Shown: piece after piece, positions 5,000 through 37,968 of the stretch
How positions within the stretch are numbered: the first letter of the stretch is position 1
How the letters are laid out: every line of letters starts with the position of its first letter
DNA from: an uncultured Clostridia bacterium
GTDB taxonomy: Bacteria; Bacillota; Clostridia; TANB77; CAG-508
DNA: 64,000 bases
Direction of reading: 5' to 3'
Assembly (NCBI GenBank): GCA_948678575.1
Contig: CAPPGO010000004.1
Span: 44,895-108,894 of the forward strand
The notes under the pieces: generated by a model
Databases searched by the model: none
The model's input: the letters and a program-made list of their open reading frames with translations, nothing else
What the model was told of the DNA's origin: nothing
Translations under genes and position numbers: made by a program

Positions 5000-5959
5000 G
5001 TTATAGTTCCATATTAAGTTTTGATATGATATAATTGGCAAATAGATGTTAAGTATGTGCCAAAAGTTATAGTTCCATATTAAGTTTTGATATGATATAA
5101 TTCTTTCTGTGTCACATCAATTATAAACCAAGTTATAGTTCCATATTAAGTTTTGATATGATATAATCATTTTGCTTGTACATATTTCATTCTATTAGTT
5201 ATAGTTCCATATTAAGTTTTGATATGATATAATTTCTATATCTTCAACATGCTCTTCTAAATAGTTATAGTTCCATATTAAGTTTTGATATGATATAATT
5301 ATAAATCAATATTCTTAACAAAGCCATGAGTTATAGTTCCATATTAAGTTTTGATATGATATAATTGATATAACAGTAAAAACAAAAGACATCAGGTTAT
5401 AGTTCCATATTAAGTTTTGATATGATATAATAAATTAAAGCAGCATTCATGTCTTTTGTAAGTTATAGTTCCATATTAAGTTTTGATATGATATAATTTT
5501 CATATATGCAGCATTTTCAATCAATGGGTTATAGTTCCATATTAAGTTTTGATATGATATAATATAGAAAAATATTGTGATGAGATATGTAGTGTTATAG
5601 TTCCATATTAAGTTTTGATATGATATAATATAGCTTATATGATTAATTTAGATACTTTGGTTATAGTTCCATATTAAGTTTTGATATGATATAATCAATA
5701 TTTATATATAATAATTATAAATACAGTTATAGTTCCATATTAAGTTTTGATATGATATAATCTCAGCTACTGCTAATGTTACACCTAACTGGTTATAGTT
5801 CCATATTAAGTTTTGATATGATATAATAAACATTGTTGCCGAATTATTGCATAATGAGTTATAGTTCCATATTAAGTTTTGATATGATATAATATTACCA
5901 ACATCTAAATCAGATAAAGAGTTGTTATAGTTCCATATTAAGTTTTGATATGATATAAT
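5000..5959 (+). CRISPR. CRISPR array: 15 direct repeats of 36 bp (GTTATAGTTCCATATTAAGTTTTGATATGATATAAT) separated by 14 spacers of exactly 30 bp (period 66)
   Basis: Repeats start at 5000, 5066, 5132 ... 5924, all identical by eye; each repeat ends in TGATATAAT (extended -10). Strand given as the predicted crRNA transcription direction, which is convergent with the cas operon. Confidence 0.97.
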
Positions 5960-6011
5960 ATGAAATTCTATAAGTACCTATTTGAGTGATATACAGCAAA
6001 TTAAATCAGAT

Positions 6012-6050
6012 AAAAAAAGAAAATTACAAAAAAATAATTTTCTTTTTTTA
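6012..6050. terminator. bidirectional rho-independent terminator between the CRISPR array and cas2
   Basis: Perfect 10-bp stem AAGAAAATTA / TAATTTTCTT (6017-6026 / 6035-6044) with 8-nt loop, flanked by an A-run on the left and a T-run on the right. Confidence 0.5.
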
Positions 6051-6055
6051 TGTTT

Positions 6056-6376
6056 TTAAAACAAACTCAACTGATTCACTCGAACTTTTCGTTCATTTTT
6101 TGTTGGCTCACCAACCAAAAATTTCATTTCTTCATATTGTTTTTCTGTAACAGTTAAACATCTAATAGAACCTTTGCTAGGCAGTTCTGAAACTAATCTT
6201 TTCATATGCTTGTTAGTCATATCCGTCCCATTACATAATCTAGAATACACTGAAAATTGCAACATATCATAACCATCATTTAATAAAAATCTTCTAAACT
6301 GAGCATAAATTTTTCTATCCTTTTTCTTTACAACTGGCAAATCAAAAAATACTATAATTCTCATAAATTTACTCAT
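6056..6376 (-). CDS. cas2: CRISPR-associated endoribonuclease Cas2
   Basis: 106 aa; [10 protein letters not shown]...[22 protein letters not shown] typical Cas2; overlaps cas1 by 8 nt. Confidence 0.9.
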
Positions 6377-7271
6377 AACTATGCACCTTTATAGGCAACA
6401 CTTCTGGTAATTCTAATTTTTTATAATCATTTTGCGTAATAGCCGTTGTATAAGATGCAATCATTATATTAATTGCATTATTAACAGATTGCACCTTTCC
6501 TTGAATTTTTACATCTAAATTTAAAAGATTTACCAATTCTGCCCTTATATACTTATCAAATTTTAAATCATTAGTTATATTAGTTTTTACCCATAAGTCT
6601 ACAATGGGTCTAAATGGTTCCATAAAATCATCTACTAAATTATAATTATTTAATTCACTTTTATGATGAATGCCTATTGCTGGAATATACCCATATGATA
6701 CTACACTTCTTGCTATAGCACCTCTAATTATAGAATATCCATAGTTCAAACATATATTATATATATCATCATAACTTCTAGCAAATCTATTAGCAAACAA
6801 TGATTGAAAATACTCTTTTGCCGCTATTGCTTCTCTATTTTGTGTATCTCCTGAATTTACCTTTTTTGACATTTCTTCCAGATGTGTACCCATAAAATCC
6901 TTTTTACACATTTTTAAAACTTCAGCTTGATTTAATATTTTTCTCATAATTACTAATTGCCAACATCTCTTTTTAAAACTTTCAGTTTGATTCAATTGTG
7001 ATTTTATAATTTTTAATTCTCTACTATGAATAGCAAAAGGTATAAATATTCCGTTTGGCAAATGTTTATCATCGCAACTATACATTATAACTTTGTTATC
7101 TGCCATTAGACTCATAACCTTTGACGATATTGATATTTGAGGTGTTTCTAAAACAATTGAAGATATATCTTCAATTGGAATTGTACATTCCTCATCTTGT
7201 GTAATTTTTAGTTGTCTGTTTTTTACAGACAATTTTGTCGGTCGTGTAATTACTACACTTCTCCAACTCAT
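6369..7271 (-). CDS. cas1: CRISPR-associated endonuclease Cas1 (type II)
   Basis: 300 aa; position immediately downstream of cas9 and length/sequence pattern of type II Cas1. Confidence 0.92.
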
Positions 7272-7273
7272 TA

Positions 7274-10200
7274 TTATTCTTTAACTCCTTTCCTTTTCTC
7301 TTTATTTATTTTACTTATATTTCCTAATACACTTACTTCATATTTTTCCAATAATTCTAAATTTTTTACACCAACGCCTTCTATTTTTTTATCTCCACTT
7401 ACTGACAATAAATTAATAGCAGCAGTTCCTCTATGTGTTGAAACATAATAAGCAAAAAATTCTTTTTCATTTTTCTTCTTAATTTTTACTAAATCATTTG
7501 GATATAAACTAAACTTAAAATCATATTCATCTGTCATTTCTATCCAATCTGTTTCATTTTTATATGCTAATATTGCATTATTAGGTAGTTTCTTCTTTAC
7601 GAAATCTGATACATATATTGGCACTAAATAATATTTATTATTCTTTGAAAAAACATCTACTCTAACCATATTAGCATTTTCAGCAATAGCGTCATTTTTT
7701 AATTTCACACCAGTACTTCCAGCTACTGGAACTTTTATACTTCTTACAATTGGACTATTTCCATTCTTGCTATACTTTCTATATTCCTCCTTAAATGCTT
7801 TATTTGCATTAAAATTATGTTCTTTTAATTTTTGGTAAATATCATCATATAATTTTTTATCACTAAAATACAATTCTCTATATGCTTCATTATTTATTAT
7901 CGATTCTATCTCACTTTTAGTGATTGATTTTAAATCTTTTTTTACTAATGTAAATCCCTTGTCTATATTTTTACTAGAACGCATTGTTTCTTTATGTGCC
8001 TTTCCTGTAATCTTTCTCTCTGGCATTCTAGATACAAATATAGGCTTTATTATCGATATATCTACATCATCATAATTTATAAATTCACCATGTTTCAGTG
8101 CATATAACTCTCCATTATTATCATAATCTTCCATTCTTGCTTGAACTTCTTGTCTAAAATTAGTCCAAGGTTCCTTTAATACATTATTTTTATTATATTT
8201 ATCCTCTTTACTATATAAACTTTTATACTTACTATACTCTGCAACTTTCTTGATATTGGCAGTTGTTGCACAGGCTATAACCACAGCATCTTGTGCATGA
8301 TGTTTATCAGAAGCATTTCTGTCTTTACTTAATCCCCAAAAATGCCTTAATGCAGCAGTTGTTGGCCCATTTATATTAAATACCTTTTGCTTTTTGTTAA
8401 TATCAGCAAATTTTAAATTATTAGAAATATAACTATTCATAAATCTAGCAATATATCTTGTATCATTAATATTTCTATCTATCCATTTTTTGGACTTTTC
8501 TTCTGAAAAATTCTTTATAAGTAAATTTTCTCTCTTCTTAGGATTATATTTATATGTTGATAAAACAAATTCTTCAAATCTATGCCAATTTTTTTGATTA
8601 TCACCCATATACTCAAATGGTGTTTTCTCACACTTATTCTGGTTTTCTTTAGACAAGACCAAAACTTTATTATTATAACTGTCATCAAAAGAACGCGAAA
8701 ATGGAATAATATGATCAACCTCGACATATTTATCTTCAAATAATCTATTGGCTTCAATTGGTAAACCTGAATATGCACATTTGTGGCCTTGTTCTCTCCA
8801 TAATTTTACTTTAACAATATCAAAAGGTTTGGGCTCAATTTCAAAATTTTCTCTTATATATTCTTTATCAGTCTCATTGTTCTTTTCATTTTCTTTTTGC
8901 TTCTTATTTATTTTGTCTCGTTCATCAAATGACTTTGCTAATTCTCTTGCTGTCTCTATATGTATTTCTGTTGGTGGACCATATCTATCTATTATGGCAT
9001 TTACTACTTTTCTTGTTTGAGATACTGCTCTTAATACTACTGGGTTTAAAATTACATCATCTAATTCTGAAACAGGAGGTAGTTTTTCTTTAAAATTTTG
9101 TTTATTTTCTTTGTATCCCACATTAGAACAAGCTTCTGTATATCCATATCCATTTTCTAACTCTGGAATTAATTTACTCATAGCCTTATATGATAAATGT
9201 CCAAATTTAGTAAAATTAATTGATAAAACAGCATTGATAATATCTTTATCTATATTTCTATCAGACAAATATTTGATTATTCCTTCATCATCTTTATTTC
9301 TCACTAAAGAATCAGCAATTATATTTTGCAATTCTGGATTTTCAATTATAAGATTAAATTTATCACTACAATTATTTTTCTTACACGCAATTCTTATCTT
9401 ATGCCACCCTTCTAATTTTACAAATTTAGTTTTTTCTACATCTTTTACTAATTCTTTTTCTGATAATTCTTTATTCTTAATATAATAATTTAGTTGTCTA
9501 AATCTATCTTCATCTGAAAGTTCTAATACTTTTCTGATCTGGTTATATTTCACTTCTGCTTGATTATACGCCATTTCTACTATTGCTTTTCTTTGTTCAT
9601 CTGTAATCTTAAAGTCTTCTCTATTCGTTATAACACTTATATTATTTATATTTTGCAACAACATAAATCTTTCAAAAGTATAACTATTTTTAGGAGCCCT
9701 TTGTTCTTCTTTTTCCAAAGTGCATTTACCTATCATTTTATTTAATATTTCTTCTGTCATAAACAGTTTTTGATATGTTATAATATCTATATATTTTTCT
9801 TCAAACTCTTTACTTGCAAATATACTTCCAAATTCTCTCTGTTTTTCAAATAGTATTCTAACTTCATCTATCAACATACTTCTTAAAACAGTATTTTCAT
9901 ATTGTCCACCTTTATTTCTCTTATTATTAACAAATTTTTCATCTTTAAAAAACATCTCTCCTACAGTTCTATAAGCATTTTCTTCCAATAATTTTTTATT
10001 TCTATTAGTTCCTGTAATTAATTTTCCACCTTCACTATCTTCACTTTCTGTTTTTCTATTAGACTTATATCCTCTTCTTTTAGCTATATTAGTAAGTACC
10101 CTTGCCCACTCTTTTCTATCTAATAGTTCATCTAATCCATCAGCTCTTAATTCATATACGTCTATTGAATTTTCGGTCATTACATATAAATTTTCTAACT

Positions 10201-10447
10201 CTTTATCAGATACTAAATTATACTCTAAAAAAAGTTCTTTTACTTTCTGCATTCTGGTAGCTCTTCTTCTAATTCTTCTCCTTGTTCCTCTTGCTTCTCG
10301 TCTTGCTAAATTTAAAGATTTTCCATCAGCCTCTTCTGCCTTTTTAAAAACTCTAACACCCAAATCTTCTATCCTACTTTTTTCTTCATTTATTACTGAC
10401 CATCCTACTGATGCGATACCTATATCTAACCCAATTGTATATTTCAT
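7274..10447 (-). CDS. cas9: Cas9, compact type II-C-like (1057 aa)
   Basis: RuvC-I IGLDIGIASVGWSV; Arg-rich bridge helix LARREARGTRRRIRRRATRMQK; HNH EVDHIIPFSRSFDDSYNNKVLV; RuvC-III HHAQDAVVIA; no csn2 or cas4 in the locus. Confidence 0.95.
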   Translation of the reverse strand: MKYTIGLDIGIASVGWSVINEEKSRIEDLGVRVFKKAEEADGKSLNLARREARGTRRRIRRRATRMQKVKELFLEYNLVSDKELENLYVMTENSIDVYELRADGLDELLDRKEWARVLTNIAKRRGYKSNRKTESEDSEGGKLITGTNRNKKLLEENAYRTVGEMFFKDEKFVNNKRNKGGQYENTVLRSMLIDEVRILFEKQREFGSIFASKEFEEKYIDIITYQKLFMTEEILNKMIGKCTLEKEEQRAPKNSYTFERFMLLQNINNISVITNREDFKITDEQRKAIVEMAYNQAEVKYNQIRKVLELSDEDRFRQLNYYIKNKELSEKELVKDVEKTKFVKLEGWHKIRIACKKNNCSDKFNLIIENPELQNIIADSLVRNKDDEGIIKYLSDRNIDKDIINAVLSINFTKFGHLSYKAMSKLIPELENGYGYTEACSNVGYKENKQNFKEKLPPVSELDDVILNPVVLRAVSQTRKVVNAIIDRYGPPTEIHIETARELAKSFDERDKINKKQKENEKNNETDKEYIRENFEIEPKPFDIVKVKLWREQGHKCAYSGLPIEANRLFEDKYVEVDHIIPFSRSFDDSYNNKVLVLSKENQNKCEKTPFEYMGDNQKNWHRFEEFVLSTYKYNPKKRENLLIKNFSEEKSKKWIDRNINDTRYIARFMNSYISNNLKFADINKKQKVFNINGPTTAALRHFWGLSKDRNASDKHHAQDAVVIACATTANIKKVAEYSKYKSLYSKEDKYNKNNVLKEPWTNFRQEVQARMEDYDNNGELYALKHGEFINYDDVDISIIKPIFVSRMPERKITGKAHKETMRSSKNIDKGFTLVKKDLKSITKSEIESIINNEAYRELYFSDKKLYDDIYQKLKEHNFNANKAFKEEYRKYSKNGNSPIVRSIKVPVAGSTGVKLKNDAIAENANMVRVDVFSKNNKYYLVPIYVSDFVKKKLPNNAILAYKNETDWIEMTDEYDFKFSLYPNDLVKIKKKNEKEFFAYYVSTHRGTAAINLLSVSGDKKIEGVGVKNLELLEKYEVSVLGNISKINKEKRKGVKE

Positions 10448-20020: not shown

Positions 20021-23000
20021 TTAATATTTTTTACGCATTTTGCTTAATGTATCATTCATACTATTAGAAAAAGCATTTGGATTATAATCTGTTCCAGTTT
20101 TGCTACTATATGATTGCTTGCTTGTAAGTGGATATACCATATCTCCAAGTAATTTTAATTTTGATAAAAATTGTTTTGAATATCCATTTAAAGAAACTTC
20201 ACAATCAACAATTCCACCAAGATATCTTGCATAAGCATTTGCATCAAAAGGAATTGAAATTGCTTTTACAGTATCTTTATTAAATAATTCTGTCATAAAT
20301 GACATTGCTGGATCGTTATAGTAAGCTAAACCACCTATAATATCTTTATCTCCAACTTTTTTATGAATTTTCATTTCTTTATTTATAACAACTCTTATCT
20401 TTTCTGGTTCTAATACACCTCTTGTTTTTAGTTCTCTTAAAAATGCTGTAAGTGGTTGTATTGTAAGTATATCCATTGATTGAACTAAATACATTTCTTG
20501 GCAACTTGCAAAATATGATATATCTGTATCATAATCGCAGTCAATTAATATTAAAGAGTGATTTTGTACTAATGTTGATAAAATTGGCTCAGCATTAGAA
20601 AAATCTTTTCCAGAAAATGGAACATCTGTATATACTGTTAAATTTTTATCTACTTTAACACCTTCTGCATATCCATTTTGCAATTTTTCTATTGAATTAT
20701 ATGCTATTGTTCTTAATTCTTCTTCATTTTTTGTAAAAATGAAATATGAATTTTTATTTTTTGTCATATCTAATATTGCAGTATTTATTCCAAGTGATGA
20801 GAATAATGCTGCTAAATTATTTACTAAGAAAGAATTTCCGTTTTTGCTAGTTCCTATAAAAGTAACTATTTTCTTATCCTTAGTAATTAAACTATTTAAG
20901 CTAGACATTGAATAATCTACTTTTGGTTTAATACTTTCTAATGAACTATTATCCATTGAACTTGCCATTGGTCTTTGAGGAATCATTGTATCTTCTTCAT
21001 CTTCAAATCCCATGCCAGGAAGTAGAGTTTCTTCTTCATATTCTTGTGAATCTCCTAAACCTGGTAATAATCCATCATCTTCATCTACTTCTTCGTACTC
21101 AGCTACATCATCTGTACCTGGAAGTAAATCATCTAATGAATCTTCACTTTCTAAGTCATCTAATCCTGGTAAAGCAACTTCATCTGTATAATCTTCTTCT
21201 CCAAGTTCATCATAACCAGATGTTAATGTATCATTAATAGTTTCATCAGTTTCTACTTCTTCATACTCAGTCATATCATCCACACCAGGAAGTAAATCAT
21301 CTGAATATGTGTCGTCTACAACATTTTCTGTTACAGTTTCATCTTCAAAACCTGGTAATACATCTGTTGTATCATCCACTTCTTCATATCCAGCATCTTC
21401 AATATCATCTAAATCATCTAAACCTGGTAATGATACTTCTTCTGTTTCTTCTGTTTCTTCTACATCTTCAAATCCAGAAAGCAAATCATCTGAATATGTG
21501 TCATCTACAACATCTTCTGTTACAGTTTCATCTTCAAAACCTGGTAATACATCTGTTGTATCATCTACTTCTTCATATCCAGCATCTTCAACATCATCTA
21601 AATCATCTAATCCTGGTAATGATACTTCCTCTGTTTCTTCATCTTCAAATCCAGGAAGTAAATCATCTGAATATGTGTCATCTTCAATATCTTCTGTTAC
21701 AGCTTCATCTTCAAAGCCTGGTAATACATCTGCTGTATCATCTATTTCTTCAAATTCAGGCAATACATTCGCCATATCTTGATTTGTATCTTCAAAATCA
21801 CCTAAATCATCTAATCCAGGTAAAGTAATCTCTTCTTCCTCTGGAATTTCTTCTTCTACGATTTTTTTAGGTCTTCCTCTTTTCCCTTTTGGCTTTACTT
21901 CTACACCACCAACTGGCGTTTTTCTTGGTCTTCCTCTTCCACGTTTTGGTTCTTCTATTATATTATTCTCTTCTTCAAAGCCTGGTAATACTGTTTCTTC
22001 TATAACTGGTTGAACAGTTTGTGGTTTTACAATTGTATCTTGTATATCTTCAAATCCAGGTAATATATTCTCATCTATAATTTCTTGTTGAGGTATTTGT
22101 GGTTTAGATACTACTTGCTCTTTTGGTTCTGGTCTCATTGTTGTTGCTTTTTGAAGCTGTGGTCTAGCAACAGGGGTTGCATTAGTTCTAATTTGTGCTG
22201 TTTGTACACGTTGTGCTTGTTGAACTGGTCTTGCTTGCACAGATTGCTCATTTTTTTCAATTTGTGCTTTTACAACAGGTCTTTGAACATCTGCCTTTGG
22301 AGATGGTTCAGCTTTTTTCATAGCTGGAGTTGCTATATTTTTAGCGTTTCTTACTGCTGATGGAATAACAATAGGTTTAGTAATGTTGCCTGCATGTCCA
22401 ATAGTTCTTTGACTTATTTCATTTTTTGCAATACCCTCTATTCCAGCAGAATTTGCAATTCCTTTAACACTAGGAATTTTTCCTGTGACAGCCATTAATT
22501 CTTGATATCTTTGACATTCTGATTCAAGAATTGCTTTTACATTAATTGGTAAACAATTTACAATAATTCTTAATTGTTCATCTGTATATTGTGCAGCTAT
22601 ATTGTTAAAACTTTCTGAATATTTTACTGTATTTCTTCCTAATTTTTTAAAATGTGCTAATATATTTTGAATTTCAACTTCACTAACTTCATTTTCATTT
22701 TCTGCTTTATAATTAACATCTTCTGAATCTATTCTATAATAAATTTTTGCTTCTTTTTTACTACGAGGTCTGTTAATTAATTTGCAAACTTCATCCATAC
22801 TTCTATCATTCCCTAGAAGTGCATTATAAACCCCTATACCAAATAATTTTACAAGAATAGAATTTCCTTTTACTCTTCTATCTGTACAAATTAAAATTAT
22901 AGAGGCTTCTTTACCTTGATTATCATCATGTGCTTCGTCGCTAATACTATCAAGTTTCTCAAAGATAAATTTATCTATTGTGTCATAATTATTGTTTGAA

Positions 23001-23182
23001 AACGGCTCTAAATCTTCGCTTATGACAATTCTATCATAAGTTTTATCTTTTTGTATCTCTTTTAATATTGCGTTGAAGTAATAAACATTCTTATAAGATA
23101 AAATTTCCTTATATTCTTTCTGATATCTTTTAATTATAGCCTCAGAAATACTTTCACTACTTACTGCAAATAAAACTTTCAT
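20021..23182 (-). CDS. large modular protein (1053 aa): receiver-like N-domain, AT-hook motifs, long acidic LPGFED tandem-repeat region, C-terminal ParA/MinD-like (degenerate Walker A) domain
   Basis: N-term MKVLFAVSSESISEAII; AT-hooks PKRGRGRPRKTP and KGKRGRPKK; about 3 repeats of a ~60-aa unit containing VLPGFEDE/SLPGLDDLDD; C-term KIVTFIGTSKNGNSFLVNNLAALFSSLG. Confidence 0.65.
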   Translation of the reverse strand: MKVLFAVSSESISEAIIKRYQKEYKEILSYKNVYYFNAILKEIQKDKTYDRIVISEDLEPFSNNNYDTIDKFIFEKLDSISDEAHDDNQGKEASIILICTDRRVKGNSILVKLFGIGVYNALLGNDRSMDEVCKLINRPRSKKEAKIYYRIDSEDVNYKAENENEVSEVEIQNILAHFKKLGRNTVKYSESFNNIAAQYTDEQLRIIVNCLPINVKAILESECQRYQELMAVTGKIPSVKGIANSAGIEGIAKNEISQRTIGHAGNITKPIVIPSAVRNAKNIATPAMKKAEPSPKADVQRPVVKAQIEKNEQSVQARPVQQAQRVQTAQIRTNATPVARPQLQKATTMRPEPKEQVVSKPQIPQQEIIDENILPGFEDIQDTIVKPQTVQPVIEETVLPGFEEENNIIEEPKRGRGRPRKTPVGGVEVKPKGKRGRPKKIVEEEIPEEEEITLPGLDDLGDFEDTNQDMANVLPEFEEIDDTADVLPGFEDEAVTEDIEDDTYSDDLLPGFEDEETEEVSLPGLDDLDDVEDAGYEEVDDTTDVLPGFEDETVTEDVVDDTYSDDLLSGFEDVEETEETEEVSLPGLDDLDDIEDAGYEEVDDTTDVLPGFEDETVTENVVDDTYSDDLLPGVDDMTEYEEVETDETINDTLTSGYDELGEEDYTDEVALPGLDDLESEDSLDDLLPGTDDVAEYEEVDEDDGLLPGLGDSQEYEEETLLPGMGFEDEEDTMIPQRPMASSMDNSSLESIKPKVDYSMSSLNSLITKDKKIVTFIGTSKNGNSFLVNNLAALFSSLGINTAILDMTKNKNSYFIFTKNEEELRTIAYNSIEKLQNGYAEGVKVDKNLTVYTDVPFSGKDFSNAEPILSTLVQNHSLILIDCDYDTDISYFASCQEMYLVQSMDILTIQPLTAFLRELKTRGVLEPEKIRVVINKEMKIHKKVGDKDIIGGLAYYNDPAMSFMTELFNKDTVKAISIPFDANAYARYLGGIVDCEVSLNGYSKQFLSKLKLLGDMVYPLTSKQSYSSKTGTDYNPNAFSNSMNDTLSKMRKKY
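21280..21800. repeat. intragenic tandem DNA repeat, about 3 copies of ~180-189 bp
   Basis: AATCATCTGAATATGTGTC recurs at 21295, 21484 and 21661; encodes the acidic LPGFED repeats. Confidence 0.7.
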
Positions 23183-23595: not shown

Positions 23596-23726
23596 ATTTA
23601 TAAAAAACCTCCTTTGGGTTATATATTCTATATAAATCTACATATATTATATAATACAATATTATTAAAAAAATATCAACCTAAATTGTCAAATTTGTGA
23701 AGTTTTTTTCCTTATTTCCGTAACCT

Positions 23727-37005: not shown

Positions 37006-37968
37006 CTATTCTATGTCCTCAACGCCAGTTGCAATTATTGTTGTAACAATTTTATTTTTTAATTTTGGATCAATTATTGTTCCAAAAATAACTGTTGCGT
37101 TTTCATCTATATCATCTCCGATGCTTGTAAGTGCTGTATTTATATCAATAAGTGAAAGCTCACTCGCACCTGCAATATTAATAATAACACCTCTTGCACC
37201 ATTAATTTTTGTTTCAGAAAGTGCATTATCTACTGCACCTTTAACTGATTCTTTAATAGCATCTTCTCCATCTCTTTCACACATTCCCAAATGTGCCATT
37301 CCTGTATTACTCATAACTGTTTTTATATCATTAAAATCTACATTAACAAGACCAGTAGAATTTAATAAATTAGTAATTCCTACTACACCTTGTTTTAATG
37401 TACTATCAGCTAATTTGAATGCTTCAATAATTGTACTATTTTTTTCTACATTTTTAAGAAGTTTATCATTAGAAATAACAATAAGTGCATCGACATTTTT
37501 CTTCATTTCAGCTATACCTTTTTTAGCTTGATTCATCTTTCTAATACCCTCAAAAATAAAAGGTTTTGTAACAACACCTACTGTTAATATTCCCATTTTT
37601 TTAGCTATTTCTGCAACTACTGGTGCAGCACCAGTTCCAGTGCCTCCACCCATTCCAGCTGTAATAAATAGCATATCTGTATCGTATAATGCTTTTTCAA
37701 TATCATCCATATTTTCTCTGGCAGCCATTTCTCCAATTTCAACAATACCACCTGTACTTAAACCACCAGTAGTTTGTCTACCAATTTGAATAACTCTTCT
37801 TGCCTTTGATAATTTTAAAATTCTAGTTTCAGTATTGATTGCAATAAACTCAACATTTTCAACTTCATCTTCTATCATTCTATTGATTGCATTATTTCCT
37901 GCACCACCAACACCTATTACTTTCATTTTTATAATTTTTTGATTATTGTCAATTATACGTTTTTCCAC
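37006..37968 (-). CDS. FtsZ paralogue lacking the C-terminal linker/tail (320 aa)
   Basis: [15 protein letters not shown], tubulin signature [14 protein letters not shown]7 loop NVDFND; ends right after the globular domain, no DIPxFLR tail. Confidence 0.8.
   Translation of the reverse strand: MEKRIIDNNQKIIKMKVIGVGGAGNNAINRMIEDEVENVEFIAINTETRILKLSKARRVIQIGRQTTGGLSTGGIVEIGEMAARENMDDIEKALYDTDMLFITAGMGGGTGTGAAPVVAEIAKKMGILTVGVVTKPFIFEGIRKMNQAKKGIAEMKKNVDALIVISNDKLLKNVEKNSTIIEAFKLADSTLKQGVVGITNLLNSTGLVNVDFNDIKTVMSNTGMAHLGMCERDGEDAIKESVKGAVDNALSETKINGARGVIINIAGASELSLIDINTALTSIGDDIDENATVIFGTIIDPKLKNKIVTTIIATGVEDIE

Follow-up and report, generated by a model that had tools for sequence, protein, structure and literature searches.

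An uncultured Clostridia bacterium encodes, in the 64,000-nt window analysed here (contig CAPPGO010000004.1; GC about 27%), a 1053-aa protein whose two ends are predicted to adopt a receiver (REC) fold and a ParA/MinD fold, joined by a long disordered linker with two AT-hooks and a hyper-acidic array of LPG motifs (Table 1). The P-loop of the ParA/MinD-like domain has neither of the two MinD lysines and is best read as a fixed alternative motif. This large protein is a member of a large unnamed, uncharacterised family, and by analogy with known spatial regulators we tentatively propose that it is a clade-specific positioning or tethering scaffold, associated with membrane and nucleoid, that follows the logic of TadZ and MinD.

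The open reading frame (ORF) occupies 20021..23182 on the minus strand, stop codon included, and starts with ATG; a first-pass annotation made from the sequence had described a modular protein of this length, and both the ORF and its features are real. It is no chance reading frame: its scored homologues number more than 6800, and 119 of full length can be aligned with it from end to end. The identical protein is deposited at NCBI as OSJ66_04830, a hypothetical protein of a Clostridia metagenome-assembled genome (MAG), and occurs on 24 contigs; given these contigs and more than 100 full-length homologues, we rejected an artefact or misassembly fusion. Its composition shifts sharply along the chain, from ordinary (aa 1-235) to basic (236-440) to acidic (441-735) and back to ordinary with a basic tail (745-1053). 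There is no signal peptide, and composition and folds are those of a cytoplasmic protein, which led us to reject a secreted or surface protein. A mobile-element or defence gene was rejected on the conserved chromosomal gene order and an empty PADLOC search.

The C-terminal domain combines a predicted ParA/MinD fold with a conserved P-loop variant

We modelled the C-terminal 309 aa with AlphaFold from a 70-sequence alignment (pLDDT 81.5, pTM 0.78). Foldseek against the PDB returned 280 matches at E <= 1e-3, with 12-17% identity and target-normalised TM-scores up to 0.74. A Chlorobium ParA-family ATPase (3ea0), FlhG (4rz3), FleN (5j1j), and MinD (3q9l) led the list at E about 1e-7, the leading group also comprised Borrelia BB_S35 (5tvk), ParA2, and MinD (1g3q and 4v02), and the top 50 were all of the ParA, MinD, FlhG, NifH, or HypB class. 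The model thereby places the domain in the SIMIBI ParA/MinD/FlhG fold and bears out the ParA/MinD-like C-terminus read earlier from the sequence.

Sequence searches were silent on this relationship. The best Pfam match to the large protein was CbiA (E = 0.12, 12.8 bits against a cutoff of 25.4), NCBIfam and PADLOC held nothing relevant for the whole protein or either end domain, and no curated CpaE-, TadZ-, or ParA-type model in Pfam or NCBIfam recognises it. Searches of all PDB sequences with phmmer and profile hmmsearch likewise gave no match for the N-domain, the C-domain, or the family alignments. Domain searches had been named as the way to challenge the two fold assignments: those at sequence level came back empty for both ends, and the predicted structures show the REC and ParA folds. 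As modelled, the relationship of both ends to REC and ParA/MinD is visible at fold level only.

The P-loop was tallied across 542 family sequences and reads G-[TAS]-x-K-x-G-[TVN]-[ST]-F. Lys fills position 4 in 535 of them (98.7%), and all 542 have Ser or Thr at position 8; position 7 varies among Thr, Val, Asn, Ile, and Ser, and Lys occurs neither there nor at position 2. The deviant Walker A motif KGGxxGK[ST], with its signature and catalytic lysines, occurs in none of the 542, and by motif the large protein would not be classed as a MinD/ParA member. The earlier description of a degenerate Walker A is right in that the motif is non-canonical and lacks the MinD lysines; it misses how strictly the variant is conserved, which argues for a fixed alternative motif, previously undescribed, and against a decayed sequence. 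Because a Walker-B-like LIDCD, the first switch-I Asp (ILD), and a VINK motif are invariant or nearly so in the family, the nucleotide site looks used, though not for MinD-type hydrolysis. The non-catalytic scaffold suggested earlier is a reasonable, conditional reading of such a site.

The register of the variant was taken from hhalign of the C-domain profile against E. coli MinD; only 19 columns aligned (MinD residues 22-40, 0.2% probability), which makes the alignment a weak guide to the P-loop register and to nothing else. In this register, N783 presumably lies at MinD K16, T778 at the signature K11, and K780 at G13.

The conserved lysine raises an alternative that we consider unlikely: an active ParA/MinD-type ATPase switch with its catalytic lysine moved to P-loop position 4 (K780), patterning membrane or nucleoid dynamically, for example, through gradients or oscillation. 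The near-fixation of that lysine beside a position 7 that tolerates T, V, N, I, and S would fit such a switch, as would the retained Mg-coordinating S/T, Walker-B Asp, and switch-I Asp and the very strong constraint on the whole domain. However, both canonical lysine positions are without Lys or Arg throughout the family, Thr stands in for the second switch-I Asp (MinD D40) in the weak 19-column register, and no ParB-, MinE-, or MinC-like stimulating partner is encoded nearby. Moreover, the closest architectural analogue, TadZ, reportedly shows little or no ATPase activity (PMC13189830).

Beyond the folded domain, the model has low confidence over domain residues 277-295 (pLDDT < 50) and then forms a helix (296-308). 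Conserved F/L/M residues, of which the query has Met, are spaced at i, i+4, i+8, and i+11 in this helix and are followed by KKK[YF].

The N-terminal domain resembles a receiver without its catalytic residues

The N-terminal 240 aa, also modelled with AlphaFold (pLDDT 81.4), form a predicted CheY-like (beta-alpha)5 receiver fold over residues 1-137 (b1 2-6, a1, b2 29-32, a2, b3 51-55, a3, b4 94-98, a4, b5 120-122, a5), followed by a five-helix bundle. Foldseek matches of the N-domain comprise NarL, DesR, and ComE along with two CpaE N-domains, 4n0p and 4myr, all with a target-normalised TM-score of about 0.63-0.75 (0.63-0.71 for the two CpaE domains), in agreement with the REC-like domain annotated at first; PmrA was matched as well. 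No Pfam match to Response_reg (PF00072) appeared even at E <= 10, and profile searches against the PDB were empty.

With catalytic positions assigned through the model strands and the Pro-minus-4 rule, not by structural superposition, Glu56 occupies the phospho-acceptor position, where 330 of 336 family members also have Glu. The acidic pair after beta1 (VSSES) and the Lys after beta5 (YNALLG) are absent as well. Judged by these residues, the modelled domain is an atypical, non-phosphorylatable receiver, as in TadZ, and not a canonical one. It is highly conserved, at 72-97% identity to the query per 20-aa window across homologues. In the adjoining bundle (helices 142-149, 168-181, 185-196, 201-210, 213-222, and 224-231 in the model), many columns are invariant; the bundle is net acidic and has no conserved basic helix.

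AT-hooks and a repeated acidic LPG array form the linker

Within the basic part of the linker lie both AT-hooks, a pair of LPGFE motifs, and a PIVIPS motif (aa 270-275) that has counterparts in 45 of 77 family members. Both hooks have the R-G-R-P core with basic flanks that characterises AT-hook PF02178, and DNA binding is predicted from this. Pfam AT_hook marks two stretches below threshold (E = 1.5), as expected for a model of only 13 residues. Two hooks had been annotated as identical GRGRPRK copies; both are there, the second as KRGRPKK.

Strict LPG[FLMVT] motifs occur 14 times, against 0.16 expected and a maximum of 3 in 2000 composition-preserving shuffles. They range over aa 374-725, and 12 of the 14 lie inside the acidic array, which is real and 295 aa long where about 400 aa had been estimated. 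From 1692 motif instances, the family consensus is [DE][DE][DE]-x-hydrophobic-L-P-G-[LMFI]-[DE][DE].

Part of the array is encoded by a tandem DNA repeat, described earlier as three copies of about 180 bp; the repeat holds up, with a period of 189 bp and 2.6 copies. A relative (P0122) is identical at 973 of 990 aligned residues (98.3%) and differs by exactly one 63-aa unit, at aa 558. The 63-aa repeat may thus be a site of the copy-number change that had been anticipated between strains; alternatively, short-read assembly may have collapsed it.

The family is large and has two branches

Of 8000 candidates examined in a full-protein search, 6813 scored at E <= 1e-3. The roughly 120 that were inspected are all labelled hypothetical, and almost all lack any Pfam domain. 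A profile of the C-domain retrieved 425 clusters at 50% identity from 1.84 billion representatives, and at least 565 loci were found in GTDB contigs with one genome per species; the architecture, whose distribution in related genomes had been put forward for checking, is conserved. All 80 GTDB loci listed come from uncultured MAGs or metagenome bins with Clostridia-type or unclassified labels, and the carriers among them include Ca. Scatovivens, Ca. Merdicola, and Clostridium sp. CAG:508. We assign the carriers to TANB77 because the protein family includes CAG:508 and because TANB77, an uncultured order, has CAG-508 as a major family (PMC11680825).

The 119 full-length homologues are 45-60% identical overall. 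Per 20-aa window, their end domains are 70-97% identical to the query, and their middle regions are 3-30% identical and full of gaps. This pattern points to strong purifying selection on both end domains. Among 68 TANB77-type species, the protein is 710-1363 aa long, its linker takes up 158-819 aa, and LPG motifs number between 0 and 26. AT-hook cores (GRP) are present in 56 of these species, with two in 47 and none in 12, and one related species has poly-Lys tracts in their place. In its minimal form, the linker begins with PIVIPS, continues with two AT-hooks, and finishes with one or a few LPG motifs in acidic surroundings.

A distant branch has end domains that are 34-45% identical and a linker that is a charged segment rich in E, K, R, A, and Q, with neither AT-hooks nor LPG motifs. 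With 0-26 motifs across related species and none in this branch, the hyper-acidic array is a recent lineage-specific expansion in a linker that evolves fast, and by sequence the LPG array is not a defining feature of the family. The distant-branch proteins end in RRG[IL]FG, which compares with KKGFLKRLFGG of E. coli MinD. Most distant-branch members inspected (P0355-P0381) also have a K/R-G-L-F-G-type motif about 20-40 residues past the N-terminal domain (e.g., KKGGLFGGFKK and RGLFGILKER) that resembles this C-terminus, and each of these proteins may therefore carry two putative membrane-binding peptides.

The large gene has a constant small partner gene

We fetched 87 loci with flanks of 6-8 kb, 83-84 of which carry the large gene. 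All 76 loci with enough flank have a homologue of the small membrane protein (133-169 aa) encoded immediately upstream of the large gene. The distant branch keeps the small protein too (31-38% identity, 30 invariant columns); a conserved loop, RKLDxRDxG, joins its two C-terminal transmembrane (TM) helices, and it has no match in Pfam, NCBIfam, or PADLOC. Here, 8 nt separate its stop codon from the start of the large gene, and a GGAGG ribosome-binding site precedes its own ATG. Promoter-like matches are not enriched over shuffles in the AT-rich region upstream of it.

Downstream lies a gene for a protein with a degenerate GGDEF domain (E = 9e-7; TIGR00254 score 30.0, below the cutoff of 37.4). 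MGPKF replaces the GGDEF motif, on which ground we rejected an active diguanylate cyclase as neighbour, and no RxxD I-site was seen in this protein. Both flanking genes are as first annotated, a degenerate-GGDEF membrane protein and a small membrane protein (134 aa). The GGDEF-like gene stands between the large gene and ireB in 80 of 80 TANB77-type loci and is absent from the 3 distant-branch loci. The MGPKF protein is 56-94% conserved, and its gain coincides with that of the AT-hooks and the LPG-type linker.

All of 83 loci have ireB and ruvX downstream of the large gene, and DUF1292 comes next in most. The hairpin after DUF1292 is the only terminator-like one on the minus strand here, and the layout weakly suggests a single transcription unit from the small gene through DUF1292. 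The upstream neighbours are peptidoglycan enzymes, namely a G5-SH3 glucosaminidase here and a PBP5-type carboxypeptidase in the distant branch. The statement that no pilus or flagellar genes are adjacent proved correct: no pilus, flagellar, min, or par genes were found in the window, no tad/cpa genes (tadA/cpaF, tadB/C, flp) in the window or the flanks of the 87 loci, and no minC/minE or parB/parS in the window or related loci.

Table 1. Features of the large gene, its protein, and its neighbours; all are on the minus strand.
Feature	Residues	Position in window	Description or evidence
Promoter-like site TTGATA-17-TATTAT		23651..23679 (-)	Upstream of small membrane-protein gene; probable operon start
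Small membrane-protein gene, 134 aa		23191..23595 (-)	Signal peptide or N-terminal TM helix plus two C-terminal TM helices
Atypical receiver (REC-like) domain	aa 1-140	22763..23182 (-)	AlphaFold and Foldseek
Conserved helical bundle	aa 141-235	22478..22762 (-)	AlphaFold helices and invariant columns
Basic disordered segment, Pro/Gln/Lys-rich	aa 236-440	21863..22477 (-)	Net +12, pI 10.1
AT-hook 1, KRGRGRPRK	aa 413-421	21920..21946 (-)	Sequence reading
AT-hook 2, KGKRGRPKK	aa 432-440	21863..21889 (-)	Sequence reading
Hyper-acidic disordered array	aa 441-735 (295 aa)	20978..21862 (-)	42% D+E, net -124
Tandem DNA repeat, 189 bp = 63 aa per unit		21285..21759 (-)	Tandem Repeats Finder: 2.6 copies, 90% matches, score 749
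ParA/MinD-fold domain	aa 745-1020	20123..20950 (-)	AlphaFold and Foldseek
P-loop variant GTSKNGNSF	aa 777-785	20828..20854 (-)	Family tally, 542 sequences
Flexible segment and basic terminal helix (..FSNSMNDTLSKMRKKY)	aa 1021-1053	20024..20122 (-)	Candidate membrane-targeting helix
Downstream gene, 381 aa		18860..20005 (-)	N-terminal TM helix and degenerate GGDEF domain
ireB, ruvX, DUF1292, terminator-like hairpin		17702..18836 (-)	ireB 18582-18836, ruvX 18162-18578, DUF1292 17732-18052, hairpin 17702-17732

A tethering scaffold is the tentatively preferred reading

The scaffold proposal rests on an architecture like that of TadZ/CpaE, a predicted terminal helix like that of MinD/FlhG, and a linker with features of HMGA/CarD and HubP/FimV. 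For such a scaffold we infer that it binds a nucleotide without hydrolysing it, binds membrane and DNA, and docks partners. The C-domain, with its fixed P-loop, would bind a nucleotide or phosphate ligand and self-associate without a MinD-type hydrolysis cycle, and the basic amphipathic tail helix would place the large protein on the membrane beside the small membrane protein. The receiver-like domain and helical bundle would serve as a protein-protein interaction module and not as a phosphorylation switch. The two AT-hooks of the HMGA-like disordered linker could attach to the AT-rich chromosome, and the acidic L-P-G-hydrophobic array could offer many docking sites for a partner or fold back on the basic hooks to regulate them, with gain and loss of 63-aa units tuning the length and valency of the linker. 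The net effect would be to connect chromosome, membrane, and partner proteins and in this way to organise a process of the cell envelope, of division, or of segregation.

Several observations weigh against the scaffold proposal. The distant branch has neither AT-hooks nor LPG motifs, so DNA attachment cannot be the core function of the family. The near-invariant K780 could mean that the P-loop is catalytically competent in an unfamiliar way. By hydrophobic moment, the tail is inseparable from background, in a test that also scored the genuine E. coli MinD targeting sequence low, and the folded C-domain is not basic (net -2). Finally, the adjacency to ireB and ruvX may be inherited gene order and not a functional link.

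A more far-reaching version is improbable on present evidence. In it, the large protein and its small membrane partner would be a new self-contained cell-organisation system of TANB77 and relatives, in which one chain links the chromosome (AT-hooks), the membrane (MinD-like domain and tail), and a multivalent acidic docking array and in which the relocated P-loop lysine (G-x-x-K-x-G-T-S) serves nucleotide-dependent switching. If true, this would amount to a new functional class of Walker A in the ParA/MinD superfamily.

Quite unlikely is a sporulation- or division-specific morphogenetic protein, either a RacA-like chromosome anchor or, speculatively, a divisome regulator whose LPG motifs mimic the C-terminal peptide of FtsZ. 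The organism has spoIIGA and sigE, Spo0A lies near the large gene in the distant branch, and the peptidoglycan enzymes stand upstream in both branches. D-L-L-P-G-F also resembles the tail D-L-D-I-P-A-F of FtsZ from the same genome, in which a second FtsZ paralogue (37006-37968) lacks that tail. However, the likeness is short, the L-R-K after Phe is replaced by acidic residues, Leu or Met is commoner than Phe after P-G across the family, the LPG motifs are missing from the distant branch, and the neighbours are housekeeping genes.

We regard as very unlikely a response-regulator-like DNA-binding protein, that is, a nucleoid-associated or global transcription factor built from a NarL-type REC domain, a helix-turn-helix, and AT-hooks, in which the MinD-like domain merely oligomerises. 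The best Foldseek matches of the N-region are full-length regulators (NarL, DesR, RcsB, LiaR, and EvgA, aligned over 226-253 columns), the two AT-hooks are conserved, and such small DNA-binding factors are otherwise nothing unusual in this genome, as HU and a CarD/CdnL homologue show. Yet these alignments have an rmsd of 10-16 A and query-normalised TM-scores no better than those of REC-only matches; because of this rmsd, the acidity of the bundle, and its want of a conserved basic recognition helix, we do not call the bundle a helix-turn-helix. No HTH or GerE family was detected in Pfam, NCBIfam, or PDB profile searches, the distant branch does without the hooks, and, since the acceptor Asp is absent, the receiver would not be under phospho-control.

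Significance of the family

ParA/MinD-type proteins are the main bacterial means of placing chromosomes, division sites, pili, and flagella. To our knowledge, nearly every known example relies on the two lysines of the deviant Walker A. Here both have been lost and another lysine has been fixed, and the family is conserved like a core housekeeping protein in at least 565 species; it offers a natural experiment on a lysine-less ParA/MinD domain. Its HMGA-like, repeat-expanding linker is unusual and brings together fusion partners otherwise known from eukaryotic chromatin proteins (AT-hooks and an acidic tail) and from polar hub proteins (acidic repeats).

TANB77 is an uncultured gut order with reduced genomes that was recently linked to immunotherapy response (PMC11680825). 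The large protein is characteristic of TANB77/CAG-508, in an order with almost no known cell biology, and the defined family provides a testable candidate for cell organisation there. The gene could also serve as a marker with a repeat region that varies between strains, short-read collapse of the repeat being possible.

Other features of the window

The window contains a complete type II CRISPR-Cas locus (5000-10447). Its array (5000-5966) has about 15 copies of the 36-nt repeat GTTATAGTTCCATATTAAGTTTTGATATGATATAAT and is followed by Cas2 (6056-6376), Cas1 (6369-7271), and a compact 1057-aa Cas9 (7274-10447) with HNH, RuvC, and a CjCas9-like PI domain.

Canonical FtsZ lies at 51411-52550. The second paralogue, on the minus strand, has 320 aa and comprises the Tubulin and FtsZ_C core only, without C-terminal linker or tail peptide. 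A sporulation sigma cluster (48763-51266, minus strand) encodes SpoIIGA (50382-51266), a sigE-like factor (49642-50379), and a 148-aa ORF (48763-49209) with sigma-70 regions 3-4 only, which may be a truncated or frameshifted sigG. Upstream of this cluster is the end of a dcw cluster with FtsQ, two DUF881 genes, FtsA, and FtsZ.

Two minus-strand genes appear to be split. A murA-like gene of the EPSP_synthase family (56879-58133) seems divided into an N-terminal 116-aa ORF (57783-58133, profile 2-105) and a C-terminal 285-aa ORF (56879-57736, profile 132-413), which could reflect a frameshift, a pseudogene, or an assembly error. An ABC exporter (41805-43518) seems split into overlapping ORFs for ABC_membrane (42658-43518) and ABC_tran (41805-42698) and adjoins an intact 575-aa paralogue (40067-41794).

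A 487-aa SMC_N/ABC-like ATPase gene (12435-13898) is among the very few plus-strand genes and sits in the only 2-kb bin of the window with positive GC skew. A 730-aa papain-family cysteine protease (61204-63396, minus strand) ends in a type I dockerin, which suggests cellulosome-like or scaffoldin-bound surface display.

Comparison with known systems

The large protein most resembles TadZ/CpaE, with an atypical, non-phosphorylatable N-terminal receiver, a ParA/MinD-fold domain at the C-terminus that has no catalytic lysine in its Walker A, and a likely role in localisation through protein-protein contacts instead of catalysis. The Walker-A-like motif of TadZ, K/RGGxGxS/T, is likewise without the catalytic Lys (bioRxiv 10.64898/2026.07.08.737194). 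The differences are that K/R-G-G occurs in none of the 542 family sequences, the signature Lys and the Gly-Gly having been lost too, that a helical bundle and the long linker (158-819 aa) are inserted between the end domains, and that the large gene lies outside tad loci. A bona fide TadZ/CpaE-type localiser of a Tad (type IVc) pilus, encoded away from the pilus genes, is accordingly a highly doubtful reading, for which the shared receiver and lysine-deficient ParA/MinD logic, the CpaE N-domains among the structural matches, and the conserved Tad pilus cluster of TANB77 genomes (PMC11680825) can be cited; that cluster, however, comes with a TadZ-like and a CpaE-like protein of its own (numbers 928 and 929 in Table 1 of PMC11680825), tad genes are absent from the window and from the 6-8 kb flanks at the 87 loci, the P-loop is G-x-x-K-x-G-T-[ST], the long linker keeps the two domains apart, and no CpaE/TadZ model matches. 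We rejected membership on the motif, the missing tad locus, and these separate TadZ-like and CpaE-like genes. The likeness to TadZ/CpaE or FlhG proposed in the first-pass annotation survives in architecture and fold, the resemblance to TadZ/CpaE being architectural only, and the AT-hooks and acidic repeats are, as it had said, foreign to TadZ and FlhG.

With MinD and FlhG (FleN), the large protein shares the predicted fold of the C-domain and a predicted flexible C-terminal extension with a short basic terminal helix, a candidate counterpart of their membrane-targeting sequence. Unlike them, the family has no KGGxxGK[ST] and no minC/minE or flagellar genes nearby, about 750 extra residues precede the domain, and at 12-17% identity the kinship is detectable through structure only.

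The long, highly acidic cytoplasmic region of Asp/Glu-rich repeats recalls HubP/FimV; the acidic repeats of HubP bind the ParA-type ATPases ParA1, ParC, and FlhG (PMC8789113, PMC12918733). HubP, however, is a LysM-anchored transmembrane protein of Gammaproteobacteria with a TPR/FimV domain, whereas here the array and a ParA/MinD-like domain are fused in a single chain and its repeats are unrelated in sequence, with an L-P-G-hydrophobic core.

HMGA proteins and the HMGA-like domain of Myxococcus xanthus CarD have RGRP AT-hooks beside an acidic segment and are intrinsically disordered (PMC4482583, PMC2919716), and the linker of the large protein also joins AT-hooks to an acidic segment in a disordered region. 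It differs in having two hooks in place of three or four and an acidic part that is ten times longer and built from a repeated linear motif; and where those modules form the terminal DNA-binding domain of a transcription factor, the module here links two folded domains.

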